From assembly GCA_021828195.1 (NCBI GenBank), contig JAKASQ010000002.1, positions 276,245 to 340,244 on the forward strand: DNA of 64,000 bases, written 5' to 3'. Position 1 is the stretch's first letter, and each line of letters starts with the position of its first letter. Of the stretch, positions 37,730-60,503 are shown piece by piece. The notes beneath the pieces were generated by a model. That model did not search any database. It saw only the letters and a program-made list of their open reading frames with translations, and was not told where the DNA came from. The translations under genes and the position numbers were made by a program. Source of the DNA: Thermoplasmata archaeon. GTDB lineage: Archaea > Thermoplasmatota > Thermoplasmata > Lutacidiplasmatales > UBA184.

Positions 37730-37951
37730 ATGCCGTCCGCGCCCCCCGCTCGTCGAACGCCCCGCCGTCGACTGAGCAAGAACGCCCGGGTCGGGATCGG
37801 CCTCCTGCTCACCTTCCTCGGACTCGTGTTCCTGGCGTCGCTCCTCCCGACGGGCTCCTCCGCCCTCTCGACCGCCCTTCCGCTCGCCGCCGCTGGCATC
37901 CTGGCGATCTGGCTCGGCGGGATCCTGCTCGGTCGCGCAAACGCGCCTTGA
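37730..37951 (+). CDS. Small membrane protein (2 TM), hypothetical
   Basis: 73-aa ORF (MPSAPPARR... GIGLLLTFLGLVFLASLL ... AAAGILAIWLGGILLG) ending 8 nt before the HAD gene. Confidence 0.35.
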   Translation: MPSAPPARRTPRRRLSKNARVGIGLLLTFLGLVFLASLLPTGSSALSTALPLAAAGILAIWLGGILLGRANAP

Positions 37952-40097: not shown

Positions 40098-40736
40098 GTG
40101 TCCCGGTCGGCGATGCGACGCTTCCTCCTCCTCACCCACCGCGTTCCCGTGCACGGGGAGTTCACGCTCAACGACCTCGCCGGAGGGGGAGGTCGAATCG
40201 ACGAGATCGCTCGCGTGGCATCTACCGCATTCACCCTATCGAACGACCTGCGTCGGGACACGGAGCTGACGATCGTGTTCCCGGCGGCCTCCCCTGCCGA
40301 AGCGCGACGCATCCGCCTCGTGGGCTCGCGCCTGCGCCATCTCAATCCGGACGAGCGATCCACCGCCGCTCTGCTCAAGAACGCGCTCGTGCGATCGATG
40401 GCGTTCCCTTCGGACTTCGAGTCCTCCCCGGGACTGATCGTGGCGGCGGCGGATCCGGTCGAAGAGCTCCGACGCTTCCTCCAGCTCCCGAACGTGGTCT
40501 GGCTCATCGAAGGAGGGGGACCGCTGCGGGAGTGGAAGGGGAACCCCGCGGAGTTCTCGGCGGTGCTCTGCGACCCCTACGACCCGACGGACGGAGAGCG
40601 GGAGGTGCTCGCCGCGAGCGGCGCGCTTCCGGTTTCCGTCGGACCGCGCTCGCTCCGGTCCTCCCAGGTGATGGACATTGTCCACAACGAGCTCGATTTG
40701 AGGGAAGCGACCGGGGAGCCCCCGACCGAGGGCTAG
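40098..40736 (+). CDS. SPOUT-class methyltransferase, TrmY-like (COG1901/DUF358; tRNA pseudouridine-54 N1-methyltransferase family)
   Basis: GRIDEIARVASTAF, LRHLNPDERS and overall ~210 aa length resemble TrmY; assignment from memory of family motifs. Confidence 0.5.
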   Translation: MSRSAMRRFLLLTHRVPVHGEFTLNDLAGGGGRIDEIARVASTAFTLSNDLRRDTELTIVFPAASPAEARRIRLVGSRLRHLNPDERSTAALLKNALVRSMAFPSDFESSPGLIVAAADPVEELRRFLQLPNVVWLIEGGGPLREWKGNPAEFSAVLCDPYDPTDGEREVLAASGALPVSVGPRSLRSSQVMDIVHNELDLREATGEPPTEG

Positions 40737-41755
40737 TGCGCGGGAAGCGCCTTCGAGGCCGAGGGCGGTCGGCCGAGGGCCTCCCGGATGGATTGCGGTT
40801 TGAGGCCCCCGATCACCGCGGTCAGCCGAACCACTTCGCGAGGCTCTTCGTGCGTCCGGGTGCCCACGACGATGTCCCTCGGATTGCCGAGCCTCCGTCG
40901 GAAGCTCTCCAGGAGCCGCTCGAACGTGTCGAGGGTCATGTTGGAACCCCCGTCCATGTGGATCAACGCCGAGGGCCGATCCGTCAGCTCGTAATCGAGC
41001 AGAGTCTCGCGCATCGCTTGCTCGACCAGACGCTCCGGCTCGGAGTGGTGGCGTTCTCCCCAGACGAGCGTGGAGAGTCCGGCGGCTCCGAGGTGGGTCT
41101 TGATGCTGGCGACGTCGACGTTCATCTGGGAAGGGTACTCGACCATGTCCACCAGGCACGAGACGAGGCCGTGGACGTAGGCGTTGCGTAGGTGGAGCAC
41201 GCGCGGGAACGGCAAGCCGCGGAATCTCAGCAGTTTCTCGTTGGAGAGCGCGAGGAGGAAGCCGCCCATCGCCTCGAGCTCCTCGAGGCTCTCCTCCACG
41301 TTCTCCCGCCGGCCGGGGCTCGCGAGCTCGTGGTGGAAGGGGAGGAAGGCGACCGGGACGGGCATCGCACCGGTCTTGCGTAGTTCCTGGGCGAGGTAGG
41401 GCAACAGCGCGCTGCCGGTGCCGCCACCGAGCCCGGCAAGGAGAAACACGATCTCGAACTCGGAGACACGCCGAAGGATCTCAGGGGCATTGTCCTCCAC
41501 CGCACGCCTCGCGGCGAGCCGGTTGCCTCCTGAGCCACGGCCCTTGAGCTCGCGCGCCCCGATCAGGATCCGTTGCGGGATGTCCATCCCATCGAGGTGG
41601 CGGGCGTCGGTGTTGATCGCGAACGATCGGACCCCGGGCAGCCCCAAGCCGAGGAGATCGCGGACGGCGTCGCCGCCGGCACCTCCGAGCCCGACGATCG
41701 CGAACGAGGGATCGGCGTGGAGGGCCGCCCAGGCGTCCGGGGAGCTATCGAGCAT
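40733..41755 (-). CDS. FtsZ/tubulin-superfamily GTPase (divergent, CetZ-like)
   Basis: G-box-like IVGLGGAGGDAV and tubulin signature AGLGGGTGSA; the rest is divergent from canonical FtsZ. Confidence 0.7.
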   Translation of the reverse strand: MLDSSPDAWAALHADPSFAIVGLGGAGGDAVRDLLGLGLPGVRSFAINTDARHLDGMDIPQRILIGARELKGRGSGGNRLAARRAVEDNAPEILRRVSEFEIVFLLAGLGGGTGSALLPYLAQELRKTGAMPVPVAFLPFHHELASPGRRENVEESLEELEAMGGFLLALSNEKLLRFRGLPFPRVLHLRNAYVHGLVSCLVDMVEYPSQMNVDVASIKTHLGAAGLSTLVWGERHHSEPERLVEQAMRETLLDYELTDRPSALIHMDGGSNMTLDTFERLLESFRRRLGNPRDIVVGTRTHEEPREVVRLTAVIGGLKPQSIREALGRPPSASKALPAH

Positions 41756-41767
41756 GGGCCTTCGCGC

Positions 41768-42130
41768 CTAGGTCGACGAACTTCCGCCGGCCGTCGCGCG
41801 CGCTTCGGAGCGGGGGACGCGCGCAGGTACGGGCGGGTGCTCGAGCCGCTGGCGGATGTATTCGCGGACCGCGGAGCGCACCGCGTCGTCGACCGACACC
41901 GAGTTCCCTTCGCGCACGAACTCTTCGAGCTCGCGGTTGTCTTGGCGAGATAGTTCAACGACCACCTTGCGCACGTTCGGCGGCGGGAGATGCATCTCTA
42001 CGTACCGCTCGAGACCTTCACGGATCGTGTCGGAGATTGTGGCCGTGCCGGTCGCCTTCTGGACCTGCTTGAGCTTCTCCACGAGACTCTGAGGGATGCG
42101 TACGGTCACCCGTTCTGACGTATCGGTCAT
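41768..42130 (-). CDS. Ribbon-helix-helix (CopG/Arc-like) DNA-binding protein
   Basis: VTVRIPQSLVEKLKQV N-terminal RHH strand-helix; 12 nt upstream of the FtsZ-like gene on the same strand. Confidence 0.5.
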   Translation of the reverse strand: MTDTSERVTVRIPQSLVEKLKQVQKATGTATISDTIREGLERYVEMHLPPPNVRKVVVELSRQDNRELEEFVREGNSVSVDDAVRSAVREYIRQRLEHPPVPARVPRSEARATAGGSSST

Positions 42131-42321: not shown

Positions 42322-43125
42322 TCAGCGTCCGTAGCGTCGTTGGCGGGTCTGGAACGTTCGGATCGCCCGGAGGAAATCGAGACGCGCGAGGCCCGGCCAC
42401 ATGACGTCGGAAAAGTACAGCTCGCTGTAGGCGGACTGCCACAGCAGGAAGTTGGAGATCCGTTCCTCCCCGCTCGTACGCAGAACGAGATCCGGATCGG
42501 GCAGGTCCGACGTATAGAGGTGGTCGGAGACCATCTTCGCATCGATGGTTTCCGGATCGATGCGTCCGGCCCGTACCTCCCGGGCTAGGGCCCGGATCGC
42601 CTCCACAATCTCGTCGCGGCCCCCGTAGGCGATCGCGACGTTGTACCGGTAGCCGTCGTAGTCCTTGGTCGCCCGTTCGGCCACCTCGATCGCGGCCTGG
42701 ACCCGGCGAGGTAGGATCTCCCGGTCTCCGATCGATCGGACCCGGATGCGATAGCGGTGGACGCGCTCATCCACCGCGATGTCACGGAAGCTCCTCTCGA
42801 ATAGATCCATGAGGTCGTCGACCTCTTCCGGGGAACGAGAGAGGTTCTCCGTGGAGAGCGCGAAGACCGTGAGGACCCGGATTCCCACCTCGAGGCACCA
42901 ATCGAGCAGCTCTTCGATCTTGTCCTTCCCCTTGACGTGACCTTCGGCGGTGAGCATCCCGTGCGCGGAGGCGAAGCGGCGGTTCCCGTCCATGATGATC
43001 GCGAGGTGCCGCGGGACCGGGCTCTTTCGAATGAGTTCCAGGAGCCGACGCTCGGTCGCCTCCCGCAGGGCCTCTCCGAAGAGGCCGGAGAGGGATTTCG
43101 AAGTCGGGGGGTCGGGCGCGGTCAC
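42322..43125 (-). CDS. uppS: cis-prenyltransferase (undecaprenyl-diphosphate synthase family; di-trans,poly-cis polyprenyl diphosphate synthase)
   Basis: HLAIIMDGNRRFA, conserved RTSGE..SNFLLWQ motifs. Confidence 0.9.
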   Translation of the reverse strand: MTAPDPPTSKSLSGLFGEALREATERRLLELIRKSPVPRHLAIIMDGNRRFASAHGMLTAEGHVKGKDKIEELLDWCLEVGIRVLTVFALSTENLSRSPEEVDDLMDLFERSFRDIAVDERVHRYRIRVRSIGDREILPRRVQAAIEVAERATKDYDGYRYNVAIAYGGRDEIVEAIRALAREVRAGRIDPETIDAKMVSDHLYTSDLPDPDLVLRTSGEERISNFLLWQSAYSELYFSDVMWPGLARLDFLRAIRTFQTRQRRYGR

Positions 43126-43182
43126 GCTAGGTGGAGGGAACTCGAGGAATAACGGTGCTGGGAGCGCCCGCGCCGGGGGGAG

Positions 43183-43286
43183 CGCCCTGGTCGGGAGTTT
43201 CGGCCCCGGGGGCGCACCCGCGGAGCCTTCGAACCCGAGTCCCAGGCTCGACAGACCTAGATCCTAGACCACTAGACTACCAGGGC
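43183..43286 (-). tRNA. tRNA-Asp (anticodon GTC) with a ~31-nt intron in the T-loop (between positions 59 and 60)
   Basis: Reverse complement: acceptor GCCCTGG/CCAGGGC with discriminator G73; D-arm GTCT-AGTGGTCTA-GGAT; anticodon stem TAGGT/GCCTG, loop CTGTCGA; T-stem TCGGG/CCCGA enclosing TTCGAA-[GGCTCCGCGGGTGCGCCCCCGGGGCCGAAAC]-T; removing the insert gives a canonical TTCGAAT loop and a 73-nt tRNA. Confidence 0.65.
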
Positions 43287-43435
43287 AGCGTGGGGGCGTA
43301 CTCGCACCATGCTATGAACCTTGCCACCGTCGGGGCCTCGAGCGCGTGCCCGGCCGGGTTCCTCGGGCGAGGCGTACCCCTCGAGCCCTTGCGTTATGTA
43401 TCGGCTCCGGCCCTTGATTTCAAGGGGAACGGACC

Positions 43436-43579
43436 ATGACGACCTTCACGGCGTGGCTGCTCGCCATTCTGGCGATCATTGCCCTGTTGCTCGCGCTCGA
43501 CCATCTCGGAGTCGACGTCGCGGGCTCGGTCTCCTCCGGCGTACACGCCGTGGAACACGTGCTCAACCGCCCGCTCTAA
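43436..43579 (+). CDS. Small single-TM peptide, hypothetical
   Basis: 47-aa ORF MTTFTAWLLAILAIIALLLALDHLGVDVAGSVSSGVHAVEHVLNRPL with TTATGTAT TATA-like element ~40 nt upstream; not in ORF track (<60 aa). Confidence 0.25.
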   Translation: MTTFTAWLLAILAIIALLLALDHLGVDVAGSVSSGVHAVEHVLNRPL

Positions 43580-43596: not shown

Positions 43597-44187
43597 CTAC
43601 CCACGGGCGAGGACCCGCACGACCGCGTCCAGGAACGAGGAAGCGTGGATGTCCGGTTCGAGGTGATGGCCCGCCATCTCAGCGAGGACTTCCGCCTCGT
43701 GTCCAATCGGTGGAACCAGCGCGGTCAAGAGCCCGAGCCGCCGCCCGGCCTCGATATCGAGCCAGCGATCCCCGACGATCGCGCTCGCGGCGAGATCGAT
43801 GCCGCGCTCCGATCGAGCGCGCTCGAAGAGCTCCCCTTTCGGCTTCCGACACGGGCACCCGGCCTCGGGCGCGTGGGGGCAGTAGTAGAATGCATCGATC
43901 CGAGCGTTCGACAGGGCGAGCCGCTCGTTGAGCCGGTGGTGGATCGCCTCCACGATCTCGCGCGTGTACAGGCCTCGCTCGATCCCGGATTGGTTGGTGA
44001 CGCACAGGATCTGGTAGCCATGATCACGGGCGAGCCGTAGTGCCTCCCCGACCCCCCGGTACACCTCGAGACGCGCCGGATCCGCGAGGTAGTGAAAGTC
44101 GGGAACGAGCGTGCCGTCCCGGTCGACGAAGAGGGCCCGGGCCCGCCGAGGTTCGACCGGGCGCTGCGCCACCGACGGGACCGTCAT
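43597..44187 (-). CDS. gmhB: HAD-family D,D-heptose-1,7-bisphosphate phosphatase-like (GmhB/histidinol-phosphatase subfamily)
   Basis: ALFVDRDGTL, VTNQSG, zinc-binding CPHAPEAGCPCRKP, IVGDRWLD; start at MTVPSVAQ; upstream part of the 300-aa ORF is low-complexity. Confidence 0.75.
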   Translation of the reverse strand: MTVPSVAQRPVEPRRARALFVDRDGTLVPDFHYLADPARLEVYRGVGEALRLARDHGYQILCVTNQSGIERGLYTREIVEAIHHRLNERLALSNARIDAFYYCPHAPEAGCPCRKPKGELFERARSERGIDLAASAIVGDRWLDIEAGRRLGLLTALVPPIGHEAEVLAEMAGHHLEPDIHASSFLDAVVRVLARG

Positions 44188-44250
44188 CGGGGAAGAGAGT
44201 CCGACCCCCCATAAGGGTTCATCCCGTCGTGGCGCTGCCCGGCACTGCCC

Positions 44251-45050: not shown

Positions 45051-45809
45051 TTGCTCGGCACTCTTACCTCGATCATCGGCATCCTCGCCACGGTCGCTCT
45101 ATCGTGCGCGGCGGTGCTCCTCCGATCGCTGACGCCGGCGGCCGGCGCGGTCGCGGCCGTCTTCGGCTCCTTCATCGTTGTCGTCGGCGGGTTTGCCTTC
45201 CTCGCGCTCCTGATTCTCTTCGTCCTCGCCGGATCCCTCGCGACTCGGTACCATATCGCCGAGAAGACCCGGGACCACCTCCAGGAAGGGCAGCATGGCG
45301 AGCGAGGGATCTCCAACGTCCTCGCGCACATCGTCATCCCCACGATCCTGGTGGGAATCTACGGACTGTCGCCGGGCGCGCTTCCCGCGTCGGCCCTCGC
45401 GTTCCTGTACACCGCGGCGCTCGCCTTCGGCGCCGCCGACACCTTCGCGAGCGAGTTCGGAGTGCTGGCCGGCCACGCCCGAAGCATCCTCACGCTGCTC
45501 CCGGTGACCCCCGGTACGAACGGAGGCGTCTCGGCCCCCGGCGAGGCCTGGGCGTTCGTGGGCGCCACCACTACCGCCGCGATCGGATTCCTCCTCTTCT
45601 CCCTCTTCTCCGCTCCCACTCCGCCGGTGGCACTGTTCGTGGTCGGTACCACGCTCGCCGGATTCGTCGGCTGCCAGATCGATTCCGTCCTCGGGGAGAC
45701 CCTCGAGAACCGGGGCTACCTCACGAAGGGGTCGACGAACCTACTCGGGATGGTCTCGAGCGTGCTGATCGGTGGCGGCATCCTCGCTGCCGCGGGAGGG
45801 CGCCTCTGA
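45051..45809 (+). CDS. DUF92/TMEM19-family integral membrane protein
   Basis: Multi-TM protein with conserved GERGISNVLAH and GAADTFASEFG motifs; no in-frame ATG near the N-terminus, TTG at 45051 proposed. Confidence 0.5.
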   Translation: MLGTLTSIIGILATVALSCAAVLLRSLTPAAGAVAAVFGSFIVVVGGFAFLALLILFVLAGSLATRYHIAEKTRDHLQEGQHGERGISNVLAHIVIPTILVGIYGLSPGALPASALAFLYTAALAFGAADTFASEFGVLAGHARSILTLLPVTPGTNGGVSAPGEAWAFVGATTTAAIGFLLFSLFSAPTPPVALFVVGTTLAGFVGCQIDSVLGETLENRGYLTKGSTNLLGMVSSVLIGGGILAAAGGRL

Positions 45810-46513
45810 CGCGTGTTCGGCGGCCCCTTCGGGGAAGCGCGGTCCTGCTCTCGGGCGGCATGGACTCTGCGACGTGCCTCAGCCTGGCGGTCCAGGAATC
45901 CCCTCCGGTGCACGCCCTCACGGTCGTCTACGGTCAGCGCCACATGCGCGAGATCCGCTGCGCCCGGGCTCTCGCCCGGCACTACGGGATCGAGAAGCAC
46001 TCCGTGCTCGACATCCCGATCGGGCCGCTCCTCGACTCCGCCTTGACCGATCGTCGCCGGACGCTCCCTCGGGCCGGGACGAGAGGTCGAAGTGCCATCC
46101 CCTCGACATACGTCCCCGCCCGGAACACACTGCTGCTCGCGGTGGCTCTCGGTTATGCGGAGAGCCACCGGCTCGCGCGGATCTACCTCGGGGTGAACGC
46201 GGTCGATTACTCGGGCTACCCGGACTGTCGGCCGGAGTATCTCCGCGCGTTCGAGCGTCTCGCCCGGCTCGCCACCCGGGTGGGCGTTGAGGAGCACCGG
46301 TCGATCCACATCCGTGCGCCGCTCCTCCGAAAGTCCAAGGCCGACATCGTTCGCTGGGGGGAACGGCTCGGAGTCCCCTGGCGACTCACCTGGAGCTGCT
46401 ACGCGGGCGGCGCGGAACCCTGCGGGGTCTGCGACTCCTGCCGACTGCGCGCCCTTGGATTCCGGGAGGCTGGGGTGCGCGACCCCACCGTCCCTATGGG
46501 TCGAGCGGAGTGA
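45806..46513 (+). CDS. queC: 7-cyano-7-deazaguanine synthase
   Basis: PP-loop LLSGGMDSA and C-terminal zinc site CYAGGAEPCGVCDSC; no canonical start in frame, only CTG at 45806 overlapping the upstream stop. Confidence 0.75.
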   Translation: MTRVRRPLRGSAVLLSGGMDSATCLSLAVQESPPVHALTVVYGQRHMREIRCARALARHYGIEKHSVLDIPIGPLLDSALTDRRRTLPRAGTRGRSAIPSTYVPARNTLLLAVALGYAESHRLARIYLGVNAVDYSGYPDCRPEYLRAFERLARLATRVGVEEHRSIHIRAPLLRKSKADIVRWGERLGVPWRLTWSCYAGGAEPCGVCDSCRLRALGFREAGVRDPTVPMGRAE

Positions 46514-54100: not shown

Positions 54101-55783
54101 ATGATGTCTGGACAAACGCCGATTCTGGTGCTGCGGGAAGGAACGAAGCGAGAGAAGGGCCGGGGCGCCCTCGCGAACAACATCGCGGCGGCCAAGGCGA
54201 TTGCGGACTCCGTCCGCTCGACGCTCGGGCCGCGCGGTCTCGACAAGATGCTGGTCGATTCGATGGGCGACGTAGTCGTCACGAACGACGGTGTCACCAT
54301 CCTGAAGGAGATGGACGTCGAGCATCCGGCCGCGAAGATGCTGGTCGAGGTGGCCAAGACCCAGGACCAGGAAGCCGGGGACGGGACGACCACCGCGGTC
54401 GTGCTGACCGGAGAGCTCCTGAAGCGGGCCGAGGGCCTCATCGAGCAGGACATCCACCCCACGCTGATCAGCCAGGGCTACCGCCTGGCCTCGACCAAGG
54501 CGCTGGAGATCCTCAACCAGATCGGTCAGCCGATCAAGATCGAGGACCACGCGATGCTCGCCACGATCGCGACGACCGCGATGGCGTCGAAGGCCGTCTC
54601 CTTCAACCGCAACGCGCTCTCCGAGATCTCGGTGAACGCGGTGACCGCCGTAGCGGAGAAGAAGAGCGCGGGCTACTCGGTCGATCTCGACAACATCCAG
54701 CTGATCAAGAAGCAGGGAGGCGCGATGACCGACACCGAGCTCATCGAAGGGGTCATCGTGGACAAGGAGAAGGTGCACACGGGCATGCCGACGAGCGTCA
54801 AGAACCCGAAGATCGCCCTCCTCGATGCCGCCCTCGAGATCAAGAAGACCGAGATCGATGCCAAGATCGAGATCAACGAACCGTCGCAGCTCAACGCCTT
54901 CCTCCAAGAGGAGGAGAGCATGCTCCGCCGGATGGTCGACCAGGTCAAGAAGTCCGGTGCGAACGTCGTCTTCTGCCAGAAGGGGATCGACGACCTCGCG
55001 CAGCACTACCTCGCGAAGGAAGGGATTTACGCGGTCCGTCGCGTCAAGAAGTCCGATATGGAGAAGCTCTCGAAGGCGACGGGCGCGAACGTCGTGTCGA
55101 AGATCTCCGAGCTCGCGGCCGACGACGTCGGCACGGCCGGTCTAGTCGAGGAGCGCAAGATCGGAGACGACTCCCTCACGTTCGTGACGGGCTGCAAGAA
55201 GGCCCGCGCGGTGAGCATCCTGATCCGCGGCGGCACGGAGCACGTGCTTGATGAGATCGAGCGCTCGCTCGACGACGCGCTCAACGTGGTCGCGGTGGCC
55301 ATCGAGGACGGGAAGTACGTCTACGGCGGCGGGGCGACGGCCAGTGAGCTCGCGCTGCAGCTCCGGGACGAGGCTGCGAAGATCGGGGGCCGTGAACAGA
55401 TGGCCTACGAGAGCTTCGCGGAGTCGCTCGAGGCGATCCCACGCACCCTCGCCGAGAATGCCGGGCTCGATCCGATCGACATCCTGATCGAGCTGCGCAA
55501 GGCCCACAAGTCCGGCAACAAGCCGGCCGGGGTCAACGTTCACGCGGGCAAGGTCGACGACATGGGCAAGCTCCACATCATCGAGCCGATCCGGGTCGGG
55601 CGCCAGGCGATTCAGAGCGCCACGGATGCCGCGGTCATGATCCTGAGGATCGACGACGTCATCGCCTCCAAGTCGAGCCCCCCTCCCGCCGGTGGTGGCG
55701 GCGGTGGCGGCGGCATGGGTGGGATGGGCGGCATGGGCGGTATGGGTGGCATGGGCGGCATGGACGGCGGCGACTTCGACTAG
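54101..55783 (+). CDS. ths: Thermosome subunit (group II chaperonin)
   Basis: Full-length group II chaperonin incl. GDGTTT ATP motif and C-terminal GGM repeat tail. Confidence 0.95.
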
Positions 55784-59004: not shown

Positions 59005-59036
59005 GGTACTGTTGTATGTCGGGGGATGAAATGTCC

Positions 59037-59306
59037 CTAGTCACCTCCGTTGCTTTTCGGGTGATGGGGGGAGGGCTTGCCCTCGGCAGCCCTTACCTCG
59101 ATTCTGGACCCGTGAACGATGTAGGTAATTCTCTCGGGGCGGGAGAGGCGATCCACGATGGGCTTGGGGATCGTGGTGAGGGTGCCTCGCGTCTCATGGT
59201 AGCTGACGCTCACAGTGAACTCCTTGGCGCCGGCCTTCCACTTCGGCATCGGAACCTCCCAAGTTATCCACATATATACGGGCATCGGGCAGTCGTCGAT
59301 ATCCAC
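59037..59306 (-). CDS. Small AbrB/SpoVT-like (swapped-hairpin) protein, hypothetical, inside IS left arm
   Basis: 89-aa ORF with TIPKPIVDRL-type motif; antisense to the IS upstream region. Confidence 0.3.
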   Translation of the reverse strand: MDIDDCPMPVYMWITWEVPMPKWKAGAKEFTVSVSYHETRGTLTTIPKPIVDRLSRPERITYIVHGSRIEVRAAEGKPSPHHPKSNGGD

Positions 59307-59339
59307 GTGGACGCACTATCGTTATATATCCACTTGGAT

Positions 59340-60503
59340 ATGCCCTATGCGATGACGGCGATGTGGCAGGACGCGAGGACCCCGGCGCTAGCGATTGTGG
59401 CACGCGGGGACCAAATCGAGACGGTGAACCCGACTGAGTATGTCGTTCGTTCCCAAAGCAAGTTGGACGCAAAGTACCATGTGACGGTAAGCAGGGATCG
59501 GTGGGATTGCGACTGCCCATTCTACGCCGAGACGAAGGTGGCGTGTATTCACATCTACGCAGTCCGGTTCCGAGCTGGATTCCGGCAGGCGAGCGGCAAG
59601 GAGAGTGTCGAACCATGCTCACGGTGCGGTTCGGGTCTTGTCGTTCGGGACGGGAAGCGACACAACCGGAGCGGTATGATCGCACGGTACGTCTGCCGTG
59701 CATGTGGCTATCGGTTCACCGGGCATGATGGTTTCCAGCGCCGCCGATCCGACCCGGAGAAGATCGCGCTCGCGCTCGACCTCTATTTCCGAGGCATGAG
59801 CGTACGCAAAGTCTCGGAGCATTTCGTTCAGGTTCACGGCCTCAAGATCGACCACACCACCGTCTATCGTTGGGTGGTGAGTTACTCCAAGCTGGCCTCC
59901 GAGTGGATGGACCGGCAGGGCGCGAGGACAGGGGAGCGGTGGCATGTGGATGAAACGGTCGTGTCGGTGAACGGCGACCCGAAGTACGTCTGGAATGTCA
60001 TGGACGGCGAGACTCGTTTCCTGATGGCGACCCACGTTAGCGCCGGGCGGGGGATGGACGACACCCGGGCTCCTCTCCGAAAGGCAAAGGCCGTCACCCC
60101 GGACCGGCCGATGGAGGTATTCACGGACGGGATGAACGCCTACCCTCGCGCGGTTCGGAAGGAACTCTCGTTCCGAGTTGGGGACCGCGTTATCAGCCCG
60201 CACCACCGAGTGCCGAGCATCCGCGCGCCCGAGTCGAACAACCGGATCGAACGGCTCCACGGTTCGGAGAAGGAGAGAATCAAGGTGATGCGCGGGTTCG
60301 ACACGGACAAGGGAACGGCGGCCCTGATGGAAGGGTTCCGGACGCACTACAACCTGATTCGGACCCATCAGGCACTTGGGACCACGCCGGCGGTCGCGGC
60401 GGGGTTCCCGGAGCTTCCCGGGTTCAAGTGGCACGAACTCCTCAAGCGGGCCGCGCCACAGCCGAAGCCAGGTTACTCCGAGATCGAGATCATTCCGAAC
60501 TAG
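59340..60503 (+). CDS. IS6-family DDE transposase with N-terminal zinc-finger region
   Basis: DDE triad context WHVDETVV, VFTDGMNAY, NNRIERLHGSEKERIK; N-terminal SWIM-like CDCPFYAETKVACIH and ribbon CSRCG...CRACG; start taken at MPYAMTAMW (listed ORF begins at 59016). Confidence 0.75.
   Translation: MPYAMTAMWQDARTPALAIVARGDQIETVNPTEYVVRSQSKLDAKYHVTVSRDRWDCDCPFYAETKVACIHIYAVRFRAGFRQASGKESVEPCSRCGSGLVVRDGKRHNRSGMIARYVCRACGYRFTGHDGFQRRRSDPEKIALALDLYFRGMSVRKVSEHFVQVHGLKIDHTTVYRWVVSYSKLASEWMDRQGARTGERWHVDETVVSVNGDPKYVWNVMDGETRFLMATHVSAGRGMDDTRAPLRKAKAVTPDRPMEVFTDGMNAYPRAVRKELSFRVGDRVISPHHRVPSIRAPESNNRIERLHGSEKERIKVMRGFDTDKGTAALMEGFRTHYNLIRTHQALGTTPAVAAGFPELPGFKWHELLKRAAPQPKPGYSEIEIIPN

Follow-up and report, generated by a model that had tools for sequence, protein, structure and literature searches.

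Introns recur at a number of non-canonical positions in archaeal tRNAs, and the site between tRNA positions 59 and 60, in the T-loop, is among them (PMC4090602). Two introns at this site are known from ARMAN-2: that of the pre-tRNA-Cys(GCA) has a relaxed splice motif and is cleaved in vitro by an archaeal EndA, whereas that of the pre-tRNA-Pro(GGG) has a strict bulge-helix-bulge (BHB) motif of the hBHBh′ form (PMC3239211). Reviews place the tRNA introns of Euryarchaeota only at position 37/38 (PMC4090602), and non-canonical positions have been tied to the broad-specificity (αβ)2 and ε2 endonucleases (PMC4090602, PMC5829648). In Methanopyrus kandleri, the pre-tRNA-Glu(UUC) contains a D-loop intron with a relaxed HBh′ motif, and the endonuclease is of the (αβ)2 type (PMC5829648). 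The endonucleases described in Thermoplasmatales are α′2 enzymes; these and the strict α4 enzymes need a 3-4-3 motif (PMC5829648, PMC3239211). Here we analyse a tRNA-Asp(GUC) gene whose T-loop is interrupted by 31 nucleotides (nt) at site 59/60, in a 64,000-nt stretch of contig JAKASQ010000002.1 from a Thermoplasmata archaeon (the whole of this stretch is called the window below). We put the probability that the locus is a functional tRNA-Asp(GUC) gene with a 31-nt BHB intron at 59/60 at roughly 90%. No report of a 59/60 tRNA intron in Thermoplasmata was found in the searchable literature.

Anatomy of the interrupted gene and its splice motif

The complete gene, as defined by its exon-intron parse and by the cloverleaf of its spliced form, occupies 43183..43286 on the minus strand, and its pre-tRNA body is 104 nt long. 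Read on that strand from 43286 to 43183 it runs GCCCUGG-UA-GUCU-AGUGGUCUA-GGAU-C-UAGGU-CUGUCGA-GCCUG-GGAC-UCGGG-UUCGAA-[31 nt]-U-CCCGA-CCAGGGC-G. The 5′ exon (59 nt, 43228..43286, minus strand) provides tRNA positions 1-59, comprising the acceptor 5′ strand, the D-arm, the anticodon arm, the variable loop, the T-stem 5′ strand and T-loop bases U54-A59. The 3′ exon (14 nt, 43183..43196, minus strand) provides positions 60-73, which are U60, the T-stem 3′ strand, the acceptor 3′ strand and G73. Between positions 59 and 60 lies the 31-nt intron GGCUCCGCGGGUGCGCCCCCGGGGCCGAAAC (43197..43227, minus strand), with a GC content of 84% compared with 62% for the exons. The acceptor stem GCCCUGG/CCAGGGC is formed by 43286-43280 with 43190-43184, the discriminator G73 is at 43183, the 7-nt anticodon loop CUGUCGA holds the GUC anticodon at 43252-43250, and in the T-loop 31 nt separate UUCGAA from U. 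The original prediction, made from the window sequence, had described a tRNA-Asp(GTC) with an intron of about 31 nt in the T-loop; all the elements it named are found, its boundaries of 43183-43286 are exact, and the agreement goes well beyond chance. The GUC anticodon in its 7-nt loop, the cloverleaf and G73 are also invariant in the 77 homologs described below, and CCA is encoded neither in the window gene nor in any homolog.

The tRNA body contains four G·U wobble pairs (G10·U25, U13·G22, U27·G43 and U31·G39), all invariant in 77/77 homologs. Four invariant G·U pairs are unusual for a genome of 68% GC; in yeast tRNA-Asp the first of them, G10·U25, serves as an identity element.

With the splice motif imposed as a folding constraint, the junctions in the window form a strict hBHBh′ structure, made up of a 5-bp outer helix (h), a 3-nt bulge, a 4-bp central helix (H), a second 3-nt bulge and a 6-bp inner helix (h′). 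All of these features are on the minus strand. The outer helix is the T-stem itself, UCGGG/CCCGA (5 bp, 43238-43234 with 43195-43191), which is invariant and 100% paired in the homologs. In the central helix, the exon bases U54, U55, C56 and G57 (43230..43233) pair with the intron bases CGAA (43199..43202). The 5′ bulge (43227..43229) consists of A58, A59 and intron G1, with a predicted cut between 43228 and 43227 (AA/G, the slash marking the cut), and the 3′ bulge (43196..43198) consists of intron A30 and C31 and of U60, with a predicted cut between 43197 and 43196 (AC/U). The inner helix pairs GCUCCG (43226-43221) with CGGGGC (43208-43203), and the whole of this element (43203..43226) encloses a small apical hairpin. 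The two bulges are thus on opposite strands and 4 bp apart, with H stacked on the T-stem. With one cut in each bulge, after its second base, the 31 nt are removed precisely and the T-loop becomes UUCGAAU. The presence of a BHB motif at the junctions was the check that the original prediction had named, and the motif is there in its strict form and conserved with covariation in 115 distinct introns.

Because the cuts fall after A59 and before U60, the intron is assigned to site 59/60. A 58/59 register was tried and rejected, as it would give a T-loop of UUCGACU, whereas intronless relatives read UUCGAAU. A self-splicing intron of group I or group II was also rejected; these need a core of at least about 200 nt, while the insert is 31 nt long and has no Rfam intron match. 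A permissive Rfam scan of 43000-43500 returned only a sub-threshold tRNA match.

The spliced 73-mer has the properties of an ordinary tRNA. ARAGORN calls it as tRNA-Asp(GUC), a perfect cloverleaf in which every stem position is paired. It is identical at 69 of 73 positions to the intronless tRNA-Asp genes of two other Thermoplasmata metagenome-assembled genomes (MAGs; loci L011 and L020), and from the T-stem through G73, a segment that includes the predicted junction, there are no differences from either of them.

Conservation, covariation and fixation across a soil clade

To place the intron among its relatives, we scanned 185,579 species-representative genomes with a 5′-exon pattern that had no intron requirement. 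This yielded 83 stretches, nearly all from Thermoplasmata MAGs of soil, peat or sediment. Syntenic contigs, whose UppS proteins are 71-95% identical, have the same tRNA-Asp just upstream of uppS; the exons are unchanged, and the inserts differ in sequence at the same position. The genome-scan loci, the syntenic loci and the window together gave 89 parsed genes, and 84 of these have a 28-33-nt insert after UUCGAA. The five without an insert come from other lineages (one of them DPANN), differ in the D-arm and read UUCGAAU, and the intronless tRNA-Asp genes of other lineages have no adjoining uppS. The search was extended to a metagenome collection of 241 million records, where the exon-exon junction combined with the clade-specific D-arm, as a spliced or intronless copy would have it, was found in none. 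A control scan of the same records with the same exons and a free gap of 10-40 nt returned 61 contigs, in every one of which the intron is 28-33 nt long. When the 84 and the 61 genes with the clade D-arm are pooled, 145/145 are interrupted, by 115 distinct introns, all of 28-33 nt.

The DNA of one of the intronless genes, from a Candidatus Iainarchaeum MAG (DPANN; L041, PULY01000028.1), encodes a tRNA-Asp that is identical to the spliced tRNA of the window at 60 of 73 positions. It shares the anticodon loop, the variable region and the T-arm 5′ strand with the Thermoplasmata genes and differs from them in the acceptor and D stems.

The genome set contains 77 distinct introns, and the alignment of these 77 precursors was used to assess conservation and covariation. 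In these 77 distinct homologs the 5′ exon is invariant except for U16/C16, a single D-loop change, U20a/C, and two anticodon-stem pairs with compensated changes, and the 3′ exon is invariant in all homologs. In the anticodon stem, one G-C pair has become A-U in 15 sequences and U-A in 1, and a G-C pair has become C-G in 8, with pairing at 100% throughout. Full compensation and invariant exons indicate that the tRNA body is under purifying selection, and therefore that it is functional and not a pseudogene.

This bears directly on a concern raised in the original prediction, namely that the locus could be a pseudogene with a canonical tRNA-Asp elsewhere. In this scenario a tRNA-Asp gene was inactivated by a 31-nt insertion or is marked by an integration scar, and a working copy does its job. 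The poor scores from standard detectors are in its favour, as is the fact that the scans for a second gene were confined to individual loci. However, the exons are invariant even across genomes in which UppS is just 62-95% identical, the insert varies freely while always keeping the BHB geometry, and the anticodon-stem changes are fully compensated. In addition, the window contains no duplicated part of the gene, synteny is conserved with no integrase adjoining the gene, and the metagenomes hold no intronless copy with the clade D-arm. The pseudogene scenario is contradicted by these observations, and we consider it strongly disfavoured. One further candidate for a gene fragment was examined and discarded: a 13/14 match to the 3′ exon (TCCCGACCCGGGCG) at 37783-37796 (minus strand) is attributed to chance, as the surrounding sequence is coding-like and tRNA features are missing upstream.

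The inserts themselves vary in a way that preserves the splice motif. With the motif imposed, each of the 77 introns folds as a BHB plus a hairpin. The central helix is paired in 77/77, and all its changes (U·A↔U·G) are in the intron strand, the exon strand being fixed; the intron strand in the relatives is CGAA, CGGA, CGAG or CGGG, all of which pair with UUCG. The first intron pair is G-C in 75/77, and nine of the ten hairpin pairs have changed on both sides across the homologs. The covariation score of the alignment is 0.175, compared with 0.077 ± 0.004 for shuffled alignments (0/500 reach the observed value) and with 0.03-0.11 when the pairing partners are slid by 1-3 columns.

The larger set of 115 distinct introns gives a similar picture and shows where variation is accepted. 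All four pairs of H can form in 113 of them and three of four in the other 2. The 5′ bulge is AA+N in 115/115, and the 3′ bulge is ACU in 95/115, the remainder having AUU, AAU, UUU or GCU. The inner helix is the most variable part of the motif: at least two contiguous pairs are present in 61/115, a single pair followed by a 1-nt bulge in 52/115, and no pair at that place in 2/115. In the bulged variant, one G-C pair and the bulge are followed by a stem of up to 9 bp; the window intron has the continuous form. Beyond what the BHB needs, no intron conservation was found among the 115 distinct introns, and both the sequence and the length of the hairpin drift.

This pattern also speaks to whether the insert could be retained, so that the mature tRNA would have an extra hairpin in an enlarged T-loop. 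The insert does form a stable, GC-rich hairpin, as such a tRNA would require, but it is the hairpin that drifts, whereas selection keeps the features recognised by the endonuclease: the 4-bp helix with U54-G57, the two 3-nt bulges and the register. If U54-G57 stayed paired for good, the T-loop could neither adopt its universal fold nor make contact with the D-loop. Retention would thus destroy the T-loop, and the intronless relatives have a normal loop of 7 nt. We therefore regard a mature tRNA that keeps the insert as very improbable, and excision of the insert as the reading to be preferred.

The same interruption affects how the gene is seen by standard tRNA detectors, which the original prediction had warned might miss it; Rfam scored it below the cutoff, and ARAGORN gave either a wrong model or no call at such loci. 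Applied to the whole window, the Rfam tRNA model does not reach its cutoff, and in a permissive local scan it yields 21.6 bits (the cutoff is 29) from an alignment whose acceptor stem includes non-standard pairs. The intronless tRNA-Asp at L011 scores 58.5 bits with this model, and the poor score of the window gene is therefore due to the intron alone. A permissive Rfam scan of the whole window revealed no further sub-threshold tRNA-like genes. ARAGORN reports an uninterrupted 78-nt tRNA-Asp at 43210-43287 (minus strand) in which the acceptor and T stems are mismatched, and across about 150 loci its tRNA-Asp calls number only 44. In its intron mode it proposed only implausible introns of 194-2567 nt, which we treated as false positives.

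In favour of a real 78-nt gene, the 21.6-bit Rfam alignment is similar to the ARAGORN model. However, the acceptor stem of such a gene would have to accommodate C·U and G·G mismatches, its T-stem would be poor and its T-loop non-standard, and its score is under the Rfam cutoff. Its 3′ half falls in sequence that is unconserved among the homologs, and ARAGORN fails at most of the homologous loci. On the comparative data we judge the 78-nt model to be already refuted. Detectors that model only 37/38 introns will miss a gene with a T-arm intron. tRNAscan-SE 2.0 seeks non-canonical introns by default, with models trained mainly on Crenarchaeota and Thaumarchaeota (PMC8450103). The practical consequence is that genomes of an abundant soil clade can seem to lack tRNA-Asp, or to carry an odd one, which affects completeness checks and tRNA counts.

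Several lines of evidence bear on the identity of the host. The GC content of the window is about 68%, and Candidatus Lutacidiplasmatales, formerly the Terrestrial Miscellaneous Euryarchaeota Group (TMEG), have about 69% GC and genomes of about 2.1 Mb (PMC9287336). The description of that order reports that tRNAscan-SE was run in archaeal mode and makes no mention of introns (PMC9287336). The nearest UppS relatives with a named source are “Thermoplasmata archaeon” MAGs, and the same interrupted gene is present in both a Lutacidiplasmatales MAG (L059) and Candidatus Lutacidiplasma silvani AcS3-62 (L085); the UppS of L. silvani is only 66% identical to that of the window. The assignment of the host to the class Thermoplasmata is secure, and its order is, on these sequence comparisons, probably Candidatus Lutacidiplasmatales, the TMEG soil Thermoplasmata. 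The intron-bearing hosts are uncultured, high-GC soil Thermoplasmata, a clade that includes Candidatus Lutacidiplasmatales.

Linkage between the tRNA-Asp gene and uppS holds at 110 loci, with UppS identities to the window protein of 62-95% (median 69%). Given this linkage and this divergence, the intron predates a deep radiation and has been lost in no sampled member. One MAG, AcS4-93, contains two intron-bearing tRNA-Asp genes (L019 and L066; JAKIWD010000017.1 and JAKIWD010000160.1), whose introns measure 32 and 29 nt and whose anticodon stems differ, and the L066 intron is the same as that of L089 in MAG AcS5-58. The two genes may be paralogs, or the bin may combine two strains. Further interrupted tRNAs, recognised by excess length together with an intact T-arm and acceptor stem, were sought in about 1 Mb of DNA from the clade, and none was found; with only about five other tRNA genes there, this search had little power.

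Predicted processing and genomic setting

The proposed path from precursor to tRNA is based on the established archaeal splicing pathway, from which we infer the cleavage and ligation steps. In the precursor, U54-G57 would be paired with the intron CGAA and stacked on the T-stem, with the remaining intron folded as a GC-rich hairpin. EndA, the tRNA splicing endonuclease, would cut each bulge between its second and third bases, and an RtcB-type ligase would then join the exons, ...GGGUUCGAA onto UCCCGACC..., to give the UUCGAAU T-loop and a 73-nt tRNA; the ligase would probably also circularise the intron. Because CCA is not encoded, a CCA-adding enzyme would complete the 3′ end after splicing. 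As U54 and U55 are base-paired in the precursor, folding of the T-loop and its modification (formation of pseudouridine-54, then methylation by TrmY) would be possible only after splicing. The window intron has the 3-4-3 motif that the strict enzymes need, and the 1-nt h′ bulge of many relatives represents a mild relaxation of the motif.

A number of points weigh against this reading. In the unconstrained minimum-free-energy fold, the tRNA stems and the intron hairpin are kept and the 4-bp H is absent. This is because the energy model penalises the two 3-nt bulges, and such an outcome is expected and usual for BHB motifs; nevertheless, the motif is not carried by thermodynamic prediction alone, and it is the comparative data that we call decisive. 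About 45% of the distinct introns (52/115), and 2 more, are slightly relaxed and not strict, and a strictly specific enzyme might cut them less well. With the M. jannaschii EndA as query, its sequence verified against PDB 1a79, tblastn gave no match to EndA in the window, in 92 loci or in about 1 Mb of related DNA. It is also possible that a second tRNA-Asp gene with a different T-arm is present elsewhere in the genome, as the scanning was confined to loci and contigs. Finally, splicing and the mature tRNA are predictions from sequence.

Upstream of the gene there is a candidate promoter. An A/T-rich, TATA-like box, AAGGTTCATA, lies at 43313..43322 on the minus strand, about -36 to -27 from the tRNA 5′ end. 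In 82 homologous upstream regions, an A/T-rich patch spans about -37 to -28, and the three bases before the gene (-3 to -1) are a conserved GCT. The box is likely an archaeal promoter with a short leader.

The genes that flank the tRNA are archaeal, and its neighbours are conserved housekeeping genes. UppS is encoded at 42322-43125 (minus strand), followed on the same strand by a CdrS-like ribbon-helix-helix protein (41768-42130) and an FtsZ-family protein (40733-41755). On the other side are a HAD-IIIA phosphatase (about 43597-44190) and QueC (about 45800-46513). The CdrS-like gene is directly upstream of the FtsZ-family gene (together 40733-42130, minus strand), the pair is also conserved beside uppS in the nearest relatives (loci L001-L003), and the arrangement resembles the haloarchaeal cdrS-ftsZ2 cell-division pair. 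TrmY, the tRNA pseudouridine-54 N1-methyltransferase, is encoded at 40098-40736 (plus strand; E = 1.4e-38), 2.5 kb from the interrupted tRNA, a closeness that may be coincidence.

Farther away in the window, a thermosome (group II chaperonin) subunit is encoded at 54101-55783 (plus strand; Pfam Cpn60_TCP1, E = 7.5e-189). Between 56 and 64 kb the GC content falls to about 64%, the AT skew rises to 0.22, and there are several long open reading frames without a Pfam match; a DDE transposase (Pfam DDE_Tnp_IS240, E = 8e-23) is encoded there at 59016-60503 (plus strand). This region is probably an insertion sequence or acquired DNA.

Persistence of the intron and comparison with known systems

The original prediction had called the T-loop position of the intron notable. 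Its interpretation is supported, but this point needs refining: site 59/60 was already published and is recurrent (PMC4090602, PMC3239211). Because Thermoplasmata are traditionally counted as euryarchaeal, the case becomes somewhat more notable than the prediction could have recognised. The kind of intron and its position are known, the lineage is unusual, and retention across the clade is complete. No new mechanism is revealed, but a strict BHB in the T-loop, with no loss in 145 copies, constitutes a clade-wide exception to the textbook generalisation that places euryarchaeal introns at 37/38. The 115 natural variants define the tolerance of the splicing machinery of this lineage, and they provide a simple system in which ideas about intron maintenance, such as integration protection and maturation order, can be tested.

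Such complete retention raises the question of whether the BHB intron, while real and spliced, owes its persistence to selection for some function of the intron itself and not to inertia. It could, for example, disrupt a T-arm attachment site for viruses or plasmids, or act as a splicing checkpoint before T-loop modification. Protection against integration has been proposed for tRNA introns, and tRNA-Asp(GUC) is one of the attB sites that fuselloviruses use (PMC4090602). The 145/145 retention in a clade whose UppS has diverged to about 62% identity would fit such a function, as would the TrmY gene nearby. On the other side, the intron is unconserved beyond its BHB needs, it may simply be that BHB introns are seldom lost cleanly, none of these loci showed an integrase or a provirus, and the location of the TrmY gene may mean nothing. 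We therefore consider a function for the intron itself possible but unlikely. A broader form of this idea, in which an ancient T-loop intron is selectively maintained, and persists through function, across an order-level clade expected to have a strict (α4 or α′2) endonuclease, is one that we hold as tentative and rather doubtful. If it were true, the textbook association of endonuclease type with intron position would have to be revised, and the clade would offer a clean natural system, one intron with 115 variants, for asking why tRNA introns persist.

The preferred reading, a functional gene with a spliced 59/60 intron, can be compared with three described systems. The canonical 37/38 intron with an hBHBh′ motif has an identical geometry: each intron interrupts, after the sixth base, a 7-nt loop on a 5-bp stem, loop bases 1-4 pair with the 3′ end of the intron, and the bulges are cut after their second base. 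The EndA and RtcB machinery is presumably shared between the two. They differ in their consequences, as the window intron is in the T-arm and blocks folding of the T-loop, whereas a 37/38 intron affects the structure of the anticodon loop. The pre-tRNA-Glu(UUC) of M. kandleri likewise has a non-canonical intron in a euryarchaeon (PMC5829648), but that intron is in the D-loop and relaxed, while the window intron is in the T-loop and strict. The closest match is with the 59/60 introns of ARMAN-2 and of Crenarchaeota (Thermoproteales), which have the same site and the same splicing motif. Here, however, the host is a member of the Thermoplasmata and not of DPANN or Crenarchaeota, the isoacceptor is Asp, and the intron sequence is different. 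Moreover, in ARMAN-2 and the Crenarchaeota the 59/60 intron is one of many in heavily disrupted tRNA sets, whereas in the clade of the window it appears to be a single, fixed intron.

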